Source: Clostridiales bacterium (GTDB lineage Bacteria; Bacillota; Clostridia; Christensenellales; Pumilibacteraceae). From it: a DNA stretch of 51,821 nucleotides. The DNA lies in the NCBI GenBank assembly GCA_031255775.1, contig JAIRRW010000064.1, forward strand, positions 1 through 51,821, read 5' to 3'. The notes under the pieces are model-generated. The model made no database searches and was not told the origin of the DNA. It saw only the letters and a list, made by a program, of their open reading frames with translations. Position 1 is the first letter of the stretch. Each line of letters opens with the position of its first letter. A program made the position numbers and the translations under genes. Shown here piece by piece: positions 1 to 51,821 of the stretch.

Positions 1-705
1 ATCGTCAACCTGTTGACAGATAGCTTTATTGATTTAATCGCCGCAGAAACCTATCTTCTAATACAAGCCGAGAAAAACGATAGCGAAATCAGGCGGTTGG
101 AAAGCCTTGTCGCCGAAAACCAAAAGGCTATCAATAACCTTATGAAAGCGTTAATGTCCGGTAAAATAACGGATACTATCATGGCGCAGATTGAGAAATT
201 AGAGGACGAGAATAAGGAGCTCAATGATTTAATCGCAACGGAAAAATCTCTGCAAATGGATTATACTTATTCCGATATTCGCAAGTGGCTGCTGCGTTTC
301 AAAAACTTGGATTATACAAAAATCAAGAATCGCAAGGACTTAATCGACACTTTGGTTTATAAGGTTATCCTTTACGAAAAGAAGATGAAAATCTTGTTTC
401 ACCTCAAAGGCGGACAGCAAAAGGGCGAACTCATACTCAACATAATCTTCCCCGAATACCCCGACGAGGACGGTGGGTTTGATGATAATTCCGGCGGCGA
501 AAACACTTTTAACGAAAGAGAAGAACGCGTTATTTCACTTTCTTCTCTTGGTCCCGGGTGTTCTTATACCGGGAAAATGGTGGAGATAAGGGGATTCGAA
601 CCCCTGGCCTATACGTTGCGAACGTATCGCGCTACCAGCTGCGCCATATCCCCACGATATGGTATTGACCGGGCGGTGGAATTTTCTGCCCGGCCAATAT
701 TGTAG
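1..705 (+). CDS. Large serine recombinase, C-terminal portion (coiled-coil plus DUF4368-like tail). It is 5'-truncated by the window edge. The true stop is uncertain because the frame reads through the tRNA gene.
   Basis: The reading frame is open to base 1 with no upstream stop. Coiled-coil heptads (LIQAEKNDSEIRRLESLVAENQKAINNLMKAL...) are followed by a KWLLRFKNLDYTKIKNRKDLIDTLVYKVILYEKKMKILFHLKG motif typical of clostridial LSR C-termini. The segment is about 40% GC, against about 60% for the rest of the window. It abuts the 3' end of a tRNA gene. Confidence 0.55.
   Translation: MVNLLTDSFIDLIAAETYLLIQAEKNDSEIRRLESLVAENQKAINNLMKALMSGKITDTIMAQIEKLEDENKELNDLIATEKSLQMDYTYSDIRKWLLRFKNLDYTKIKNRKDLIDTLVYKVILYEKKMKILFHLKGGQQKGELILNIIFPEYPDEDGGFDDNSGGENTFNEREERVISLSSLGPGCSYTGKMVEIRGFEPLAYTLRTYRATSCAISPRYGIDRAVEFSARPIL
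578..653 (-). tRNA. tRNA-Ala (anticodon CGC)
   Basis: The reverse complement gives a 76-nt cloverleaf: GGGGATA TG GCGC AGCTGGTA GCGC G ATACG TTCGCAA CGTAT AGGCC AGGGG TTCGAAT CCCCT TATCTCC A CCA. The G3:U70 pair is the Ala identity element. The anticodon loop is TTCGCAA, giving CGC. The T-loop is GGTTCGAATCC and CCA is encoded. Confidence 0.85.
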
Positions 706-13068: not shown

Positions 13069-13120
13069 AGCGATGCCGGTCTCCTTGCCTTTCGATAAAC
13101 TTTTTGATGAACTTTTTTTA

Positions 13121-13310
13121 ATCGACCTGTTCTAATTTTAACAGACCTGTTCTAAACCCAATCGTGAATGGATAAACGAGGATATATTTTGTCCGCCGAG
13201 GAAAAGGTTCTTTTTGGTAGCAGCGCTACCAAAAACGGTTCTTTGACGACGGCGGGCGGAATATAGGCCGTTTAGCCGTCACGATTGGTTGCAAGAACAG
13301 GTCTCATTCT
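13121..13310. mobile_element. MITE-like unit: imperfect inverted terminal repeats about 25 bp long flanking about 100 bp that contain a GGTAGCAGCGCTACC hairpin
   Basis: The left arm is CGACCTGTTCTAA...CAGACCTGTTCTAAACCCAATCGTGA. The right arm is TCACGATTGGTTGCAAGAACAGGTC. The AGAACAGGTC/GACCTGTTCT and CCAATCGTGA/TCACGATTGG pairs are reverse complements. Confidence 0.4.
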
Positions 13311-16789: not shown

Positions 16790-16925
16790 AACGCCGCTAC
16801 GCTTGCGTTGTGAGCGAGGGATAAGGCACTTTTTGACAAAAAACGTCGTTTTTGTCAAAAAGATTTAAGAGAAAGATAGCTGACGCGTTTTTGTCAAAAA
16901 GATTTAAGAGAAAGATAGCGGTTGC
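16790..16925. repeat. Copy B of the intergenic repeat family, including a 38-bp internal tandem duplication
   Basis: GAGCGAGGGATAAGGCAC is followed by GACAAAAAACGTCGTTTTTGTCAAAAAGATTTAAGAGAAAGATAGCTGACGCG. The segment TTTTTGTCAAAAAGATTTAAGAGAAAGATAGCGGTTGCG then repeats. Confidence 0.6.
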
Positions 16926-17683
16926 GTTAAAAAGTATTCGACGGCGGCGATGCTGCGCTTGGAGGCCTCCAGGACAAATTCGTAAAAGCTCCCCACCGCT
17001 TTTTCGTCGGCGTTGTCCGAAACGGACCTAAGCGCGGTAAAGGGCACATTCAGCTCAAAGCAGACCTGCGCGACGGCGGCGCTCTCCATATCCACCGCGC
17101 TTGCGCCGAACTGTTCTTTTAAATACCGCGCCGTTTGCGAATCGTCGATAAACCGGTCGCCGGACGCCACCGTCCCCTTAAAGCAGGAAAACCCCAGGGC
17201 GCGCGCGGCGGCGTAGAGCCCCTCGCACAGGGTCGGATCGCAGGGGATAAAGGGCGACCCGTACCCCTGTATCTGCCCGGGCAGGAGGCCGTCGGCCACC
17301 GCCGAATAGTCGTGCTGTACCGCGCTTGCCGCCACGACGATGTCCTTTTGCTTTAGGGGCGCGATGCCGCCCGCCACGCCCAGATTGATGAGGGCGTCGG
17401 GGCGAAAGCGTTCGATCATGACGGATGCCGCCATGGCGGCGTACACCTTTCCGACGCCGCAGCAGCACAAAACCACGTCCCGGCTTGCCAGCCGCCCGGT
17501 AAAAAAGGTCAGCCGCCCGATCGTATAGGCCGAAAGCGCCGAAAGCCGCGCCTTTAAGCCCTCCGTTTCAAGCGCGAGCGCGCCGATAATCCCGATTGGC
17601 GCCGCCGCTTTTGCGCAAGCGTCCCCCTTCGCGCGGCCATGCCCGTCCCCGTCAAAAGAATCGGACGCAAAACCCTTGCGCAT
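16904..17683 (-). CDS. mtnN: 5'-methylthioadenosine/S-adenosylhomocysteine nucleosidase
   Basis: The PNP/UDP phosphorylase fold is present (APIGIIGALALE...MESAAVAQVC). The ATG at 17683 has an AGGAGGTGGG SD. Confidence 0.85.
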   Translation of the reverse strand: MRKGFASDSFDGDGHGRAKGDACAKAAAPIGIIGALALETEGLKARLSALSAYTIGRLTFFTGRLASRDVVLCCCGVGKVYAAMAASVMIERFRPDALINLGVAGGIAPLKQKDIVVAASAVQHDYSAVADGLLPGQIQGYGSPFIPCDPTLCEGLYAAARALGFSCFKGTVASGDRFIDDSQTARYLKEQFGASAVDMESAAVAQVCFELNVPFTALRSVSDNADEKAVGSFYEFVLEASKRSIAAVEYFLTQPLSFS

Positions 17684-35233: not shown

Positions 35234-38200
35234 ATGAAGTTCACGCGTTGTCTAAAGAAATATTTTGTTGCGATTACCGCCGCGTTTTTGGCGCTGGCCT
35301 TGGGATTCTGCTATGCCTCTCTCCGCTTTCCCGGCGCGTACGCCGCCGACGAGGATGCCTTTGACGACAGCCGGTATTTGATTTGGACAGCCCCCCTGAC
35401 GATCGCCGACGGTCAATTTGACAGCGGCAGCGGCGTTTTGGGTACGCCCTCCTCCTGGACGGGCGAGCGGGTCTCGGGCGCCGAGCCCGTCACGGGCATT
35501 TTGGATCTCTCCGCCTATTCGGCCAACGTTGACTCGTACAAGCTCAAGGACAGATACGACGAATTTAAAAACGACGCGCCCGATTCGCCCTTTGGCAAGG
35601 CGAACGATTCGTCCAAGGGGTTTGAGGGCAGCAACCGCAAGGTTCTTTTGATCAATTCGGACGGCAACACTACGACCTACGGCTACCGCTCGCAGGCCTT
35701 TACGCTGGAGCCCGCCTCCTATTACGGCATTTCGGTGTGGCTTAGGACGGGCGCGTTTCACGGAAAGTCCGGCGCTTCCGTCGTGATAGACGGCTTTGAC
35801 GGCAAGGACAACAAAAACATCGGCATCTACAACATCGACACGACCAAAATCGCCGACCCCGCCGAGGACGATTACCGGGTGGGCTGGCGCGAACACACGA
35901 TCTATATCGCGACGCCCGCCTACACCGCCACCGAGGCCACGCTGACGCTCTCGCTGGGCGCGGCGGATCGGGTCGGGAGCGGCGAGGCGCAGGGCTATGT
36001 CATGTTTGACAACATTACGGCCAAGCAGTATTCGCCCAAGACCTTTGCCGACGCCTTTCATTTCGAATCGGTGTCGGAGGACGGCACGGGCCGGTATTTT
36101 GACCTGTATGACGGCGTTCCGGTCGAGAACGGCGATTTCTCGTCCTTGCCCGATTTTTGGTCGGGCGTAAAGGGGAGCGACGCCAACGCGCTCGTCCGCG
36201 ACGTCGAGGGGGGCGCCTACGCCTACGACCATTTCGGCATGGAACGCTATGCCTACGCGCCCGGCTTTACGGACGTGGGCACAAACCGCATCCAACTGAT
36301 CACCTCTTACGACGAAACGAAGGACGCCTTTAAGGAAGGGTACAACGGCATCATCTCCGAGGAAATCGAGGTCAAGCGGTATGCCCTGTACCGGGTCGCC
36401 TTTTGGGCCAAGACCGAAAGCCTTTCCGGCGGGGGCGCGACGGCCGCCGTCCATTACAAGGCGGTGGGCGCTCCGGAGGAGACCGAATCAAAGGAGACGC
36501 GCATGACCGGCGTGACCGGGGACGAGAGCAATTACGCGCGTTTCGGCTGGAAGCAGCACGCCTTTTATATTCGCGGCTCGGCCTATTTTGATTTTAAGAT
36601 TCAGATCGAGCTGGCTCTTGGGAGCAAGGACAGCAAGGGCAAGGGGCTTGTCCTCTACGACGACGTGACCATGGAGACGCTGACGCCCACCCGGTTTGCG
36701 GCCTTTGCCGAGGGCGACGGAACCAAGGTCGAGCTGGACAGCGTGACCGACGAGTCCGGGCTGACAAACGGCAATCTGGACAAGGCCGGCGAATATGAGG
36801 AGCTGGTCTACCCCCTCTACGACAATCCGCTGCCGCCCGAGGGGTGGACGCTGACAAAACCCAGCGCCAACGACGCGGCGGGATACGACAAGACCGACCG
36901 GGGCGCCGACGACATCGTTAGCGGGCTGGTGCCCGTCGAGGATATTATCAGTCTCAACCTAGACAAGGCCTACGGCGGGGCGCTTCGCCTCTCTTCGCCC
37001 ACCCTGACGGCGTTTGCCTATAAGAGCAGCGGCATCACGGTCGCCGCGTCCACGGCCGAGGCGCCCGTCTATAAGGAGATCGCCGTGACGCTGGCGGTCA
37101 GCGACATCAGCGGGTACGGCGCAAGTTTGGTTTTAAAAAACGGCGCTTCGACCGTCGCGAACATCGAGGGCATCCGGGATACCCTCGCCAAAACGCAGAC
37201 CTATAAATTTTATGTCAAGGGCGGCAACGCCGAGGCCGCGATGACCCTGGAGGTCTGGCTGGGCATGGCCAACCGTCTAAACGCCGCGCCCAAGCTGAGC
37301 GCGGGCGACGTCTTTGTCACCGGCGTACGGGTGACCGATTCGACTGCGGAGGCGTACGACGCGGCGGCGGCAAGCTACAAGGTCGATCGGCGTCACGCTG
37401 TGGAGGACGGCCTCGACTACGCCGTCGTCCCCCTCACGGACAACCAGTTTTATCTGTTTGACAACTTTGACACCGACAACAACGCGGGACTGCCCAACCA
37501 GGTCAAGCATCCGTACAACTGGTCGATGTCAACGATCGGCGACCAAAGGCTGGTGCGTTACGGCATTTTCGCCGCCGACCCGATTTCGGGCAGTCAGATC
37601 CCGGCCGCCTTTAAAAACCCGCTGGGCGCGCCCTATATCCTACTGCTGGAAAACCTGGCCGACACCGCCAGCACGCTGACGCTGGACACGCCCTACGCCC
37701 TCTCCGCTTCCGGCTATTATAAGCTGTCCGTCGCGGTCAAGGTCGACCTAAACGACGCGGCGCGCGACAGCGGCAAAATGCTGGGCGCCTCGATCAAGCT
37801 TTCCTCGGGGGATTTTGTCTTTAAGGACATTAAGGACACCTCGAAAAAGCCGGTGGGCGACACCAATTTAGACCCCGACAAAGAGGTTTTTCGGACCTAT
37901 ACCTTTTATATCAAGGCGGGTGACGCCGAGAGTACGCTCGGCCTGACCTTCGGGCTGGGCGGCAGTGAAAATCCCGGCCAGCGGATCGCCGGACGGCTGT
38001 ATATCGGCGACATCACGCTCGAAACGATCGACAACGTCGCCTATGACGACGCCGCCGACCGCTATGCCGCGCTAAAGAAAAACAACGACAGGGACGTCAA
38101 TGAGGCCGAGGAATACGCCACGACCATGATCGTCGATCAGTCGTCGGCCGCACAGCCCGAGGAGGGCGGGGATACGCCCGACGCGGACGCGGGCTGCGGC

Positions 38201-38914
38201 GACATTCAGTGGTGGCTGATCCCCTCCATTCTGCTGGCCGTCCTGTTGATCGTCGTCGTCGTCGGCAGCTTTATCCGCCGCAAGATCGACAACCGACCCA
38301 AGAAGGTCACCGTCAAAAAAGCGGCCTCCTACGACAGACGCCTTGTCAGCCTTGACGAGGAGGAAGTCACGGTAGACGCCGCCGGAAAGACCGTTTCCGT
38401 CAAGACGCCCGATTCGTTTGAATCGTTTGACGACGACGCCGAGCCCGCCGCCGAAAAGCCGGTCAAAAAGCCGAAGCCGGTCAAGGAAGTGCGCGGCGAC
38501 GAATTTGACGAAACGGACGACCTAGAGGACGCAGACGACGCGGACGACGCGGCCAACGCGGCCAACGCGGCCAACGCGGCCAACGCGGCCAACGCGGCCA
38601 ACGCGGCCAACGCGGACAACGCGGACAACGCGGACAACGCGGACAACGCGGACGACGCGGACAACGCGGCCAAGACGGACGAAATGAACGACGCGGACAA
38701 CGCGGACGACGCGGCCAAGGATGAAACGCCGGAGCCGACGGAGGCCGCCGCGCCCGCAGACATGGCCGAACCCGCGCCCGCCGAACCGACGACGGAACCC
38801 GCATCGGAACCCGCGGCCGACAAAACGACCGCGCCCGACGAGAAAGCGGAGCCGGACGAAAAGGCCGCGCCCAAGAAAGCGTTTGGCGGCTTTGAGGACG
38901 ACTTTGAGGATTAG
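35234..38914 (+). CDS. Large type-I membrane/surface protein with four CBM_4_9-like beta-sandwich modules and an acidic repetitive cytoplasmic tail
   Basis: The N-terminus has a signal peptide (MKFTRCLKKYFVAITAAFLALALGF...AYA/AD). About 980 aa of ectodomain carry four recurring modules that end in W..H.FYI / YKFYVKGG / TYTFYIKAGD patterns. One TM helix follows (IQWWLIPSILLAVLLIVVVVGSFIRRK). A D/A/N-rich tail of about 200 aa follows (DADDAANAANAAN...). Confidence 0.7.
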   Translation: MKFTRCLKKYFVAITAAFLALALGFCYASLRFPGAYAADEDAFDDSRYLIWTAPLTIADGQFDSGSGVLGTPSSWTGERVSGAEPVTGILDLSAYSANVDSYKLKDRYDEFKNDAPDSPFGKANDSSKGFEGSNRKVLLINSDGNTTTYGYRSQAFTLEPASYYGISVWLRTGAFHGKSGASVVIDGFDGKDNKNIGIYNIDTTKIADPAEDDYRVGWREHTIYIATPAYTATEATLTLSLGAADRVGSGEAQGYVMFDNITAKQYSPKTFADAFHFESVSEDGTGRYFDLYDGVPVENGDFSSLPDFWSGVKGSDANALVRDVEGGAYAYDHFGMERYAYAPGFTDVGTNRIQLITSYDETKDAFKEGYNGIISEEIEVKRYALYRVAFWAKTESLSGGGATAAVHYKAVGAPEETESKETRMTGVTGDESNYARFGWKQHAFYIRGSAYFDFKIQIELALGSKDSKGKGLVLYDDVTMETLTPTRFAAFAEGDGTKVELDSVTDESGLTNGNLDKAGEYEELVYPLYDNPLPPEGWTLTKPSANDAAGYDKTDRGADDIVSGLVPVEDIISLNLDKAYGGALRLSSPTLTAFAYKSSGITVAASTAEAPVYKEIAVTLAVSDISGYGASLVLKNGASTVANIEGIRDTLAKTQTYKFYVKGGNAEAAMTLEVWLGMANRLNAAPKLSAGDVFVTGVRVTDSTAEAYDAAAASYKVDRRHAVEDGLDYAVVPLTDNQFYLFDNFDTDNNAGLPNQVKHPYNWSMSTIGDQRLVRYGIFAADPISGSQIPAAFKNPLGAPYILLLENLADTASTLTLDTPYALSASGYYKLSVAVKVDLNDAARDSGKMLGASIKLSSGDFVFKDIKDTSKKPVGDTNLDPDKEVFRTYTFYIKAGDAESTLGLTFGLGGSENPGQRIAGRLYIGDITLETIDNVAYDDAADRYAALKKNNDRDVNEAEEYATTMIVDQSSAAQPEEGGDTPDADAGCGDIQWWLIPSILLAVLLIVVVVGSFIRRKIDNRPKKVTVKKAASYDRRLVSLDEEEVTVDAAGKTVSVKTPDSFESFDDDAEPAAEKPVKKPKPVKEVRGDEFDETDDLEDADDADDAANAANAANAANAANAANAANADNADNADNADNADDADNAAKTDEMNDADNADDAAKDETPEPTEAAAPADMAEPAPAEPTTEPASEPAADKTTAPDEKAEPDEKAAPKKAFGGFEDDFED
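38534..38668 (+). repeat. 15 tandem 9-bp units inside the cytoplasmic tail coding region of the surface protein
   Basis: The units read GACGACGCG x2, GCCAACGCG x7, GACAACGCG x4, GACGACGCG, GACAACGCG. They encode (DDA)2(ANA)7(DNA)4DDA DNA. Confidence 0.8.
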
Positions 38915-46819: not shown

Positions 46820-47989
46820 GTGAAATACCCTATGAGAAAATTGAGCGTTTTTGTGCTCGCCGCCATGCTGCTGTTCGGCGCGGCGGCCTGCAACGTCGAA
46901 AATTTTGAGGATTTTAGAAATCCGCTGCCCTGGCGCACGATAGCGGGCGTCTACAAAAGGGGCGAGATCGTCGGCTATACCGTCGAAAAGACCGATGCCG
47001 CGCAAGGGGACGCCGTTGTGGGAAGGGGCTATACGATCTACGACCTGCATACGCTGGCGCCGGATGAGGCGCATTACAGCGAGGCCGAGTCCCGGGACGT
47101 GCTAAGCATGGAGACGTCCGTCACCTACAACGACAGGGCGGATCCGATCCTGCGGGGGCGGACGGATACGGTCGTCAGCCGCGTCGTCTTTGCGTCCGAT
47201 GCGCTGACCATGCGGTATTCGCGCAAGGAGGTGCGCTACGACCGCGGCTATATAAAAAACGCGGACGGCAGCGACAGCGGCCAGGAGGTCAGGCGCGACG
47301 ACTATACGCTTGTCACCGACTATCTGCAACAAAAGAGCACGCTGACCAAGATGGGGTACGACGAGGGAAAAAACGTGCTCGGCGCCCCCGTCGAATTTAG
47401 CTTTTCCGGCCAAAAGGCCGAGGCCTTGAGCAAGCTGGTGGACAACGAATTTTTGTTTTATCAGGTGCGCGCGCTGCGGGTCAAGCTTCGCGAGACCTCG
47501 ACGGGCGGCTGCGGCGGCGGCAGCGTCGAACCGGGCGGGACGGGCACGGTCAAGCTCTTAAACGCCTATCACCTGTTTGAAAACAACGTGTTTAAGACCT
47601 ACACCTATACCTATTCGTGCGCGACCGACCAGGAGGACGCCGCGGTGCTGAACGTCCCCGCGCGCCTAAACGCTTGGGGCATCACCGAGGGAAAAATCAG
47701 CTGCATCCCCACCACGCTCAGCCTCTCCGGCGGCAGCGAGGGCTCGGGCGCGGACATCAAGCTCAACTACGCCGAAAAGCCCTTTGCAAACGCGGAAACC
47801 GGTTTGGAGACCCAAAAGGTGCTCTGCTCGATCGAGACCACCGAATTCGGCCGCTTTTCCGACTCCGGCTATTACCAGTTTACCGGCGAAAAATCCTGCG
47901 TGACGACGACCGCGATCGATGACTATTACTTCGGCGATCAGCCGACGGCCTTTAAAGAGGCGCTTCGCACAAGATTACAAGAGAGTTGA
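46820..47989 (+). CDS. Hypothetical lipoprotein
   Basis: The GTG start lies 10 nt after AGGAGG. The signal peptide is MKYPMRKLSVFVLAAMLLFGAAAC, with a lipobox (LFGAAA-C). No domain was recognised. Confidence 0.6.
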   Translation: MKYPMRKLSVFVLAAMLLFGAAACNVENFEDFRNPLPWRTIAGVYKRGEIVGYTVEKTDAAQGDAVVGRGYTIYDLHTLAPDEAHYSEAESRDVLSMETSVTYNDRADPILRGRTDTVVSRVVFASDALTMRYSRKEVRYDRGYIKNADGSDSGQEVRRDDYTLVTDYLQQKSTLTKMGYDEGKNVLGAPVEFSFSGQKAEALSKLVDNEFLFYQVRALRVKLRETSTGGCGGGSVEPGGTGTVKLLNAYHLFENNVFKTYTYTYSCATDQEDAAVLNVPARLNAWGITEGKISCIPTTLSLSGGSEGSGADIKLNYAEKPFANAETGLETQKVLCSIETTEFGRFSDSGYYQFTGEKSCVTTTAIDDYYFGDQPTAFKEALRTRLQES

Positions 47990-48001
47990 AACGCGCTGCC
48001 G

Positions 48002-49363
48002 CTACTGGCGGTAGACCATGTTGCGGATGTCGGAGACGGCTTTTTTGATGCGCGGGTCCTCCTTTTGCAGGCTGCTTGCGATCTTGTTTTTGGCGTGCAT
48101 GATGGTGGTGTGGTCGCGCCCGCCCATCAGGCCGCCGATGGCGGTGAGCGGCAGGGGCAGCATTTCGGAGATCAGGTAGATGCAGATCTGGCGGGGCTCG
48201 ACGATCTCCTTGTCCCGCTTTTTGCCGACGATGTCCTCGCGCTTGACGTTGAAGTAGCGGCAGGTGGACTCGATAATGTCCTCCGCGCCCACGGCCTCGG
48301 CGGTGGGCTCGCGGTAATCCTTAAAGGCCTCGCCCGCAAGCTCGACGGTCAGCGGCTTGTCATACAGCTTGGACAGGAGGATGATCTTGTTGAGCAGGCT
48401 TTCCATCTCGCGGATGTTGCTGTCGATATGCTGTGCCATAAAGACCAGCACGTCCTCGGGGACGTTGTACTTTTCGATCTGCGCCTTTTTTTGTAAGATG
48501 GCGATGCGCGTCTCTAGGTCCGGCGGCTGGATGTCGGCGATGAGCCCCCATTCGAACCGCGAACGCAGGCGGTCCTCTAGGTCGGGGATCTCCTTGGGGG
48601 CGCGGTCGGAGGCGAATATGATTTGTTTATTGGCTTGATACAGGTCGTTAAAGGTATGAAACATTTCGGTCTGCGTACTCTCTTTTTTGGAAATAAACTG
48701 GATGTCGTCGATCATCAGGACGTCCACGCTGCGGTATTTGTCGCGAAAGTCGACGGTGATGCCGTTTTTGTTGCGGATCGACACGATCAGCTCGTTGACA
48801 AATTTTTCGGAGGAGACGTACAGCACCTTTAAATTGTGGTCGTGCTTGCGGATATAATTGCCGATGGCGTGCATGATGTGCGTCTTGCCAAGACCCGCGC
48901 CGCCGTAAATAAAGAGCGGGTTGTAGGTCGCGCCCGGGTTTTCGGATACCGCTCTGGCCGCCGCGTGCGCAAACCGATTGCACTCGCCCACGACAAAATT
49001 GTCAAAGGTATAGCGCGGGTTGATGACCATGGCGTCGGTCTTGTGCGGCTCGTCGGCCTCCTCGCGGTCGGACGGGGACGCCGCCGCGCCGTCCGCCTCC
49101 GCGTCCTTGGGGATCTCGTCGGCCAGCACGACGGCGATGTCGCCGTACAGCGGATTGACATAGGACAACACGCTGCGAATGAGCGGACGCAGGCTGTTGT
49201 TGACGGCCTCGCGGTTGGCCTCGGTGGGCGCCATAAGAACCAGCTTGCCGTCCTCGATATCCAACGCCTCCAGGGGCTTGATCCACACGTCAAAGCTGAT
49301 GGTGGACGCTTCGGTCTCCAGTATGCTGAGCATTTCCTGCCAGATTCGTTTTGCGCTGTTCAT
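48002..49363 (-). CDS. dnaA: Chromosomal replication initiator protein DnaA (full four-domain protein)
   Basis: The AAA+ Walker A is GGAGLGKTHIMHAIG and the sensor region is VDVLMIDDIQF. Domain IV is LPLTAIGGLMGGRDHTTIMHAKNKI. The start was taken at MNSAKRIWQ, with GGGGGAG upstream. Confidence 0.9.
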   Translation of the reverse strand: MNSAKRIWQEMLSILETEASTISFDVWIKPLEALDIEDGKLVLMAPTEANREAVNNSLRPLIRSVLSYVNPLYGDIAVVLADEIPKDAEADGAAASPSDREEADEPHKTDAMVINPRYTFDNFVVGECNRFAHAAARAVSENPGATYNPLFIYGGAGLGKTHIMHAIGNYIRKHDHNLKVLYVSSEKFVNELIVSIRNKNGITVDFRDKYRSVDVLMIDDIQFISKKESTQTEMFHTFNDLYQANKQIIFASDRAPKEIPDLEDRLRSRFEWGLIADIQPPDLETRIAILQKKAQIEKYNVPEDVLVFMAQHIDSNIREMESLLNKIILLSKLYDKPLTVELAGEAFKDYREPTAEAVGAEDIIESTCRYFNVKREDIVGKKRDKEIVEPRQICIYLISEMLPLPLTAIGGLMGGRDHTTIMHAKNKIASSLQKEDPRIKKAVSDIRNMVYRQ

Positions 49364-49387
49364 ACGGCCTATTCTCCCCCTGTCCTG

Positions 49388-49411
49388 CACGAATGTCCTA
49401 CACGAATGTCA
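49388..49411 (-). promoter_or_regulatory. Two 10-bp direct repeats (CACGAATGTC on the + strand, GACATTCGTG on the coding strand) in the 92-bp dnaA leader
   Basis: Read directly. The spacing is 13 bp. They do not match the DnaA-box consensus TTATCCACA. Confidence 0.35.
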
Positions 49412-49455
49412 ATCCTCTCTATACGGCATAGGTTAGCCGCCGTATAGGACGCTCG

Positions 49456-51787
<2,332 letters not shown>

Positions 51788-51821
51788 GGCGGCCTGCGGA
51801 AAGAGCTGTAGGATCAGGGTA

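Follow-up and report, generated by a model that had tools for sequence, protein, structure and literature searches.

The dnaA gene of an uncultured Clostridiales bacterium lies in a neighbourhood that fails each defining feature of a canonical Firmicute origin locus that we tested, and we consider it probable that the initiator gene became detached from the origin of replication at a time older than this organism, with DnaA acting in trans on an oriC located elsewhere. The sequence analysed, hereafter the window, is a complete 51,821-bp contig of a metagenome-assembled genome (MAG), JAIRRW010000064.1, in which dnaA occupies 48002..49363 on the minus strand; its protein carries the GenBank label 'MAG: Clostridiales bacterium'. 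A rnpA-rpmH-dnaA-dnaN origin context is described as conserved across Firmicutes, and in B. subtilis and C. difficile the gene is flanked by a bipartite oriC (PMC7561715). The window has in common with this canonical locus the same initiator protein with identical DNA-contact residues, for which TTATCCACA-type boxes are expected, but it contains no rpmH, dnaN, box cluster or AT-rich spacer, and dnaA is packed between guaB and a lipoprotein gene.

To locate DnaA boxes, we scanned for TTATCCACA with at most one or at most two mismatches, and for the relaxed consensus TTWTNCACA. Seven scattered matches to TTATCCACA with at most one mismatch are present in the window, versus 4.3 expected, and TTWTNCACA has no match across it. 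Neither the guaB-dnaA spacer (92 bp to the dnaA ATG, 65 bp to an alternative GTG) nor the 12 bp that separate the stop codon of dnaA from that of the convergent lipoprotein gene (47990..48001) contains a box, even with two mismatches allowed. No 40-mer of at least 75% A+T occurs near dnaA, and a box cluster is absent from the 48 kb downstream and the 2.4 kb upstream of the gene that the contig covers. The partner genes are missing as well: tblastn with queries taken from related loci, four of them for DnaN, finds no dnaN, recF or gyrB in the 51.8-kb window and no rpmH (best E = 5.9), and Pfam annotation of 37 of the 41 open reading frames (ORFs) of at least 150 aa reveals no DnaN, RecF or GyrB. 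An earlier note on this DNA, made from the sequence only, had described a dnaA flanked by guaB 65-92 bp upstream and by a convergent lipoprotein gene 12 bp downstream, outside the rpmH-dnaA-dnaN-recF-gyrB context, and had offered, as one of two readings, that the origin must lie elsewhere; the coordinates and the absence of the partner genes are confirmed here, and the lack of room or boxes beside dnaA, of a cluster on the contig and of clusters in the relatives described below agrees with this reading.

Two places in the window were considered as origins and rejected. The best cluster of boxes with at most two mismatches, at 201-800, falls in a partial ORF of ~40% GC and a tRNA-Ala gene and reflects AT richness, and a shallow minimum of the cumulative skew at 25-30 kb coincides with neither a strand switch nor boxes.

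The relatives were obtained from a genome scan with one genome per species, and the best 80 of 595 matches, each fetched with up to 10 kb of flank on either side of dnaA, underlie the clade and outgroup counts given here. Twenty of these loci (L001-L020, DnaA identity 55-75%) form a clade of uncultured Clostridia that includes Candidatus Neoclostridium and Protoclostridium, and the other 60, with at most 51% identity, serve as the outgroup. All 20 clade loci have the tightly packed order (rpoB-rpoC-...)-tilS-hpt-methyltransferase-rsmI-dnaA-rpmE-DUF1385/prmC-prfA, with a TetR-family gene directly before dnaA in L010-L019, and for two representative proteins this order was seen on further independent contigs, 24 for one and 11 for the other. 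In none of the clade loci does the fetched sequence contain dnaN or rpmH, which are present in 47 and 33 of the 60 outgroup loci, respectively. Likewise, at least three boxes with at most one mismatch within 800 bp of dnaA are found in 0/20 clade loci and in 40/60 outgroup loci. This indicates that the non-canonical neighbourhood is a lineage trait and not the oddity of a single contig. We therefore propose a scheme in which dnaA would have been held throughout the clade in a co-oriented housekeeping block, with no dnaN, rpmH or box cluster nearby.

One clade locus does carry a cluster, the only one of at least three boxes among the clade loci examined: three DnaA boxes, two of them perfect, lie within 40 bp in the methyltransferase-rsmI spacer of L019 (8420-8459), ~1.6 kb upstream of dnaA, and may constitute an internal autoregulated promoter. 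A box-like 9-mer is also present inside the dnaA gene of the window (TGATCCACA, 49279-49287), where it encodes the conserved V-W-I of domain I, and it is probably a by-product of coding. A box-like 9-mer recurs at this place, +77 of dnaA, in many loci (at 10077 in L015 and L017), is a perfect box in some of them and is conserved across the order.

In addition, we identified a DnaA box in the promoter of the tilS operon of several relatives. The motif cTTGACAaaTGTGGATAActttt(a/t)TATAAT precedes tilS in L002, L007, L008, L009 and L081-L084, and comprises consensus -35 and -10 elements separated by a perfect DnaA box, ~3.5 kb upstream of dnaA. As TTGACAaaTGTGGATAActttt-TATAAT it is located at L002:6348-6364, L007:6506-6522, L008:523-539, L009:1216-1232, L081/L082:6351-6367 and L083/L084:6564-6580. 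That the six distinct loci among these share a perfect 9-mer at one and the same place in the promoter is far beyond chance, and it indicates that the DnaA of the clade binds canonical boxes. The tilS-hpt-methyltransferase-rsmI-dnaA operon is probably autorepressed by DnaA from this distal promoter, and in the scheme that we propose several clade members would autoregulate the operon through one perfect box between -35 and -10. No boxed promoter of the tilS type was found in the window before dnaA, guaB or the truncated ORF upstream of guaB.

The DnaA encoded in the window is, as judged from its sequence, very probably the ordinary orthologous chromosomal initiator of this organism and no diverged paralogue. 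It comprises 453 aa (ATG start at 49363, TAG stop at 48002-48004) and is identical in sequence to GenBank MDR0426236.1. The frame is open over 48002..49390 (-), and the start was assigned to the ATG at 49363, which has a Shine-Dalgarno (SD) sequence, GGGGGAG, 8 nt before it and gives an N-terminus, MNSAKRIWQEML, that agrees with the homologues; the alternative GTG at 49390, located within the repeat of the leader and lacking a ribosome-binding site, was discarded. The Pfam models DnaA_N (PF11638), Bac_DnaA (PF00308) and Bac_DnaA_C (PF08299) all score above their cutoffs, and domain I, the AAA+ domain III and the helix-turn-helix of domain IV are all present, so that the protein is complete, as the earlier note had stated. 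The equivalog model TIGR00362 covers residues 8-449 with 519.8 bits versus a cutoff of 343.9, and B. subtilis DnaA (8BTG) matches residues 6-448 with 417 bits. Compared with 8BTG, the Walker A and B motifs, the box VII arginine and sensor II are intact (GGAGLGKTH, DVLMIDDIQF, RLRSRFEWG and NIREME, respectively).

The residues that contact the bases of the DnaA box are R399, P423, D433, H434, T435 and H439 in E. coli numbering (PMC7561715). The equivalents of R399, D433, H434, T435 and H439 are conserved in the window protein, and the region of P423 reads PL-T-A-IG, not SLPEIG. This variant is also found in the outgroup loci L025 and L026, whose dnaA-dnaN spacers hold perfect TTATCCACA clusters, and, the contact residues being canonical, the canonical box is the right search target.

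A second dnaA-like paralogue with a different role had been the other reading of the earlier note. In that case the gene would serve in regulation or otherwise, and the genuine initiator would be encoded beside dnaN and oriC on another contig. These results make this alternative very unlikely. It would account for the non-canonical context and for a promoter without autoregulatory boxes, two dnaA genes have been reported in Chlamydiae (PMC4009838), and a weaker second copy in the related assemblies could be missed among the best 80 of 595 matches. Nevertheless, the full-length TIGR00362 match is far above its cutoff, the Hda models stay well short of their own cutoffs (114 versus 194.8 for TIGR03420), and every ATPase and DNA-contact residue is kept. 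Hda and the truncated DnaA-like regulators have ~230 aa with the AAA+ domain only, whereas the window protein has 453 aa with domains I and IV. In a neighbour-joining tree of DnaA, from which the truncated L020 was left out, L001-L019 are monophyletic and the window protein is nested among them as sister to L001-L007 on a branch of ordinary length, thus within the sole dnaA detected in each of the 20 related assemblies. No second dnaA locus from these assemblies appears among the best 80 of 595 matches, although Negativicutes DnaA at 43% identity is listed there; the nearest other DnaA among them is 75% identical.

If the origin is not beside dnaA, the orientation of the genes gives some indication of its direction. 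The minus strand holds 33 of the 37 genes and 85% of the coding bases, with no strand switch in the window. Gene orientation in Firmicutes usually follows replication, and if this applies here, replication passes through the window right to left and the origin lies beyond 51821. This suggests that the origin is situated upstream of guaB, somewhere past the right-hand contig end.

The same observation lends some weight to another explanation, namely that oriC is nearby, just past the right contig end, perhaps with an rRNA operon or a repeat in between at which the assembly stopped; dnaA would then be origin-proximal without being adjacent. The contig breaks off within an ORF 2.4 kb upstream of dnaA, and the strand bias points to an origin on that side. 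In B. subtilis 168, guaB, metG-tatD, tilS-hpt and rsmI are origin-proximal, with an rRNA operon between gyrA and guaB. Furthermore, the outgroup loci L046, L047, L059, L060 and L065, which have no adjacent dnaN, show box clusters 1-7 kb from dnaA. In the clade, on the other hand, no cluster of at least three boxes occurs over 21 kb in loci with full 10-kb flanks on both sides, such as L001, L002, L004, L006, L007, L011 and L015, L019 being the exception, and L081-L084 show no strand switch upstream of dnaA. A nearby oriC is thus a rather unlikely explanation, though one that retains appreciable weight.

An indication of where a detached origin may reside comes from an outgroup genome, MAG-R039 (47% DnaA identity). 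On its contig CAKJYJ010000001.1, dnaA (L057) has no boxes nearby, and an orphan dnaN (L088) lies 23 kb away, preceded by a 690-bp spacer of 18% GC (L088:9314-10000) with five DnaA boxes, one of them perfect. When dnaA and dnaN come apart in this group, the boxes can remain at dnaN, as they do in cyanobacteria (PMC4009838). The suggestion of the earlier note that the origin lies, for example, near dnaN is therefore supported by analogy with MAG-R039, and for the MAG of the window and its clade neither dnaN nor oriC was found. Using the DnaN of the sister lineage L027 as a probe, four of the five matches inspected (P0261, P0284, P0342 and P0252) proved to be outgroups with dnaA adjacent. An approach through recF of L013 and its homologues likewise led to contexts without dnaN or boxes.

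The recF genes of the clade are themselves scattered: the order is recF-tetR-dnaA in L013 (8139-9236) and recF-hydrolase-hprK in L085 (10001-11101) and L086, in L087 recF sits beside an integrase/conjugation module, and among the homologues it is also found alone. Neither dnaN nor gyrB is ever near the clade recF genes examined (L013, L085-L087).

A separation of the initiator gene from the origin has precedents. In E. coli and in alpha-proteobacteria dnaA is unlinked from the origin. The E. coli operon dnaA-dnaN-recF is located away from oriC, which is found at gidA-mioC, and its DnaA represses its own gene by way of boxes in the dnaA promoter. As in E. coli, DnaA would here act in trans on a distant origin, and the box in the tilS promoter of the clade relatives resembles that autorepression; unlike in E. 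coli, where dnaA, dnaN and recF are together, the three genes are dispersed here, and the window has no box at any candidate promoter. An initiator gene unlinked from its origin is also known in cyanobacteria and Chlamydiae, and in cyanobacteria oriC adjoins dnaN with dnaA elsewhere (PMC4009838, PMC6323995). The cyanobacterial case is alike in that dnaA is unlinked from dnaN and from the boxes, the proposed history is likewise a translocation of dnaA out of an ancestral dnaA-oriC-dnaN unit, and MAG-R039 has exactly this layout. It differs in phylum and in the box, which is expected to be TTATCCACA here and not TTTTCCACA, and the link of dnaN to a box cluster comes here from the outgroup genome MAG-R039. 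A clade of Clostridia with dispersed dnaA, dnaN and recF and two solutions for dnaA expression is thus unusual for Firmicutes and of a type known in other phyla. A literature search on Christensenellales and dnaA found nothing relevant.

The immediate junction of guaB and dnaA, as well as the genes downstream, was found in none of the relatives, with which there is no synteny beyond dnaA and guaB themselves, and an exact look-up of the window protein gave no match. In L015 and L017-L019, guaB (orthologues 73-75% identical) is located directly upstream of tilS, ~4 kb before dnaA. As the simplest history we infer an ancestral order guaB-tilS-hpt-methyltransferase-rsmI-...-dnaA, from which a four- or five-gene block would have moved elsewhere. 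Such a later rearrangement in this MAG would have removed the tilS-rsmI block together with its promoter and placed dnaA directly behind guaB. An outright loss of the block is unlikely, since tilS is normally essential.

A chimera of assembly or binning, joined at or near dnaA, could also create such a junction; the earlier note had named it as a finding that would overturn its reading. Among ~15 billion catalogued proteins this DnaA is on one contig only, with a gene order unlike that of any relative. However, neither junction shows a break in GC, GC at third codon positions (GC3) or tetranucleotide composition: dnaA has a GC3 of 0.83, similar to the adjoining genes, and in tetranucleotides it correlates with the remainder of the contig at 0.85, other 1.4-kb segments giving 0.89 ± 0.05. 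The dnaA genes of the relatives are compositionally very different, with correlations to the contig of only 0.55-0.69. Moreover, guaB is linked to dnaA also in L015 and L017-L019, and a 9-bp complementarity bridging the guaB 3' end and the dnaA SD sequence (see below) suggests that the junction evolved in place. A chimeric origin of the junction is for these reasons highly improbable.

The spacer between guaB and dnaA forms the leader of dnaA, 92 nt at 49364..49455 (-). It contains a 13-nt tandem repeat at 49381..49410 (-; 2.3 copies, score 53 in Tandem Repeats Finder, TRF), within which both occurrences of GACATTCGTG lie (49388-49397 and 49401-49410, -), at a period of 13 nt. The two direct repeats and the lack of TTATCCACA-like boxes in this spacer are as the earlier note had reported them. 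One may ask whether these exact 10-nt direct repeats, just upstream of dnaA, are divergent DnaA boxes that form a miniature origin or an autoregulatory site in the spacer. We find this scarcely credible. The repeat differs from TTATCCACA at four or more of nine positions in either orientation, the motif is not above chance elsewhere (4 matches versus 2.9 expected), and the 92-bp spacer has no 40-nt stretch of at least 75% A+T. A divergent box specificity of this DnaA is rejected in view of its canonical contact residues together with the perfect canonical box used by the clade relatives. Since small arrays are common in the window (47 TRF rows with a score of at least 30), the leader repeat alone is weak evidence of function.

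A consensus scan of the leader detected neither a sigma-70-like promoter nor an intrinsic terminator, and Rfam gave no match at the gathering threshold or at E<=5. Co-transcription with guaB is therefore the natural assumption, and dnaA of this MAG would then be expressed from a transcript shared with guaB. In the predicted fold of the leader (-41.9 kcal/mol, z-score -3.25), the SD region of dnaA, GGGAGAAUA (49370..49378, -), pairs with UAUUCUCCC (49462..49470, -) in the last guaB codons (..N-Y-S-P-K-stop), to which it is a perfect 9-bp complement. This pairing is retained whether 121, 241 or 361 nt are folded, with an unpaired probability of the SD of at most 0.04, and when the first 30 nt are removed, as by a terminating ribosome, the SD is predicted to be freed (unpaired probability 0.57-0.98). 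The ribosome-binding site of dnaA has the lowest predicted accessibility of 32 genes tested. An inner helix is predicted between the first repeat copy (CGUGUAGGAC, 49395-49404) and GUCCUAUACG (49441-49450), just past the guaB stop codon, and the segment that pairs with this copy has an alternative partner in a local hairpin, CUAUACGGC-N11-GCCGUAUAG (49419..49447, -), which follows the guaB stop without a T-tract and was not called by the terminator scan.

According to this model, the final codons of guaB would lock the ribosome-binding site of dnaA into a 9-bp helix. Ribosomes ending guaB would open this helix, so that dnaA translation would be coupled to that of guaB. We put this coupling forward tentatively, as a possibility with the odds against it. 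Known examples of translational coupling through an SD masked by the coding sequence before it include rpmI-rplT and the MS2 coat-replicase pair. The predicted helix resembles these in joining the end of the upstream ORF to the downstream SD over 9 bp and in that a terminating ribosome would open it, and differs in its long spacer of 92 nt and in being predicted from the thermodynamics of one sequence. The fuller picture is one in which a large clade of gut and environmental Clostridia dismantled the dnaA-oriC-dnaN-recF unit and left dnaA as the promoter-distal gene of housekeeping operons, under a distal one-box promoter in most members, and in which a guaB-dnaA bicistron with an SD-sequestering helix arose here and ties the synthesis of DnaA to the translation of IMP dehydrogenase. 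Taken as a whole, this picture is doubtful and is offered as a speculation.

Several points weigh against the detachment that we favour and against its extension to coupling. For no member of the clade, this MAG included, was oriC or dnaN found, which makes the location 'elsewhere' a negative inference. The contig stops 2.4 kb upstream of dnaA, where an origin just past the end is possible, and the GC skew, nearly flat with an overall value of -0.0025, gives no independent direction to the origin. A second dnaA in the same genome is possible too, the scan being that of the best 80 of 595 matches. The guaB-dnaA junction is present on a single contig without independent confirmation, the nearest DnaA being 75% identical. 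Regarding the leader, its structure is a thermodynamic prediction on one sequence without covariation support, and three other genes are similarly low in accessibility of the ribosome-binding site, two of them with uncertain TTG starts.

A detached dnaA has practical consequences, because origin predictors are guided by how near dnaA lies (PMC6323995): in these MAGs the origin will be misplaced if it is deduced from dnaA or if the genome is made to start there. A bipartite origin flanking dnaA would also not be obligatory in Clostridia, and the clade offers natural experiments on the control of dnaA expression away from oriC, by a boxed distal promoter and possibly by coupling to guaB. If true, this coupling would link initiator supply directly to guanine-nucleotide biosynthesis. 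The accepted view of the DnaA mechanism and of initiation is unaffected.

The genes surrounding dnaA are those of an ordinary chromosome. The co-oriented guaB directly upstream (49456..50907, -) encodes IMP dehydrogenase (TIGR01302, 614 bits). The convergent gene downstream (46829..47989, +, with 46829 as the likely start; ORF listed from 46733) encodes a predicted lipoprotein with the signal peptide MRKLSVFVLAAMLLFGAAAC and a lipobox-like AAAC, has no Pfam or NCBIfam family, and shows a GC3 of 0.78, typical for the contig. Upstream of guaB, a gene with no Pfam or NCBIfam match is open to the contig end and truncated there (51029..51821, -; 0 stops, GC3 0.81). The spacer before guaB (50908-51028) has no recognisable sigma-70-like promoter and contains two GC-rich hairpins, CCGCCCCG..CGGGCGGGG and CCGCCCG-ATGC-CGGGCGG, neither followed by a T-tract. 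Further genes in the window include addAB, rnfCDGEAB, metG-tatD, ppx-maf-mreB, holA, aspartokinase, glmM and gpmI, as well as genes for a MinD/ParA-like ATPase and a DAC-domain cyclase.

At the left end, window positions 1-705 have ~40% GC, against 60% elsewhere, and hold a partial ORF without a Pfam match that runs into tRNA-Ala(CGC) (578-653, -); this segment looks like the edge of a mobile element integrated at the tRNA gene. Between the tRNA-Ala and an SPFH/Band-7 gene, a 43-bp tandem repeat of 2.9 copies (766-891, 91% matches, TRF score 210) is present. Other intergenic tandem repeats occupy AT-rich spacers between housekeeping genes at 16847-16928 and 13090-13155, with a 39-bp unit in 2.1 copies and with 12-bp and 20-bp units. 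Finally, the minority strand carries a 1226-aa ORF without a Pfam family (35234-38914, +), in which a 9-bp repeat of 21 copies (38529-38718) encodes an acidic (A/D)-N-A run (..AANAANAANADNADNADN..).

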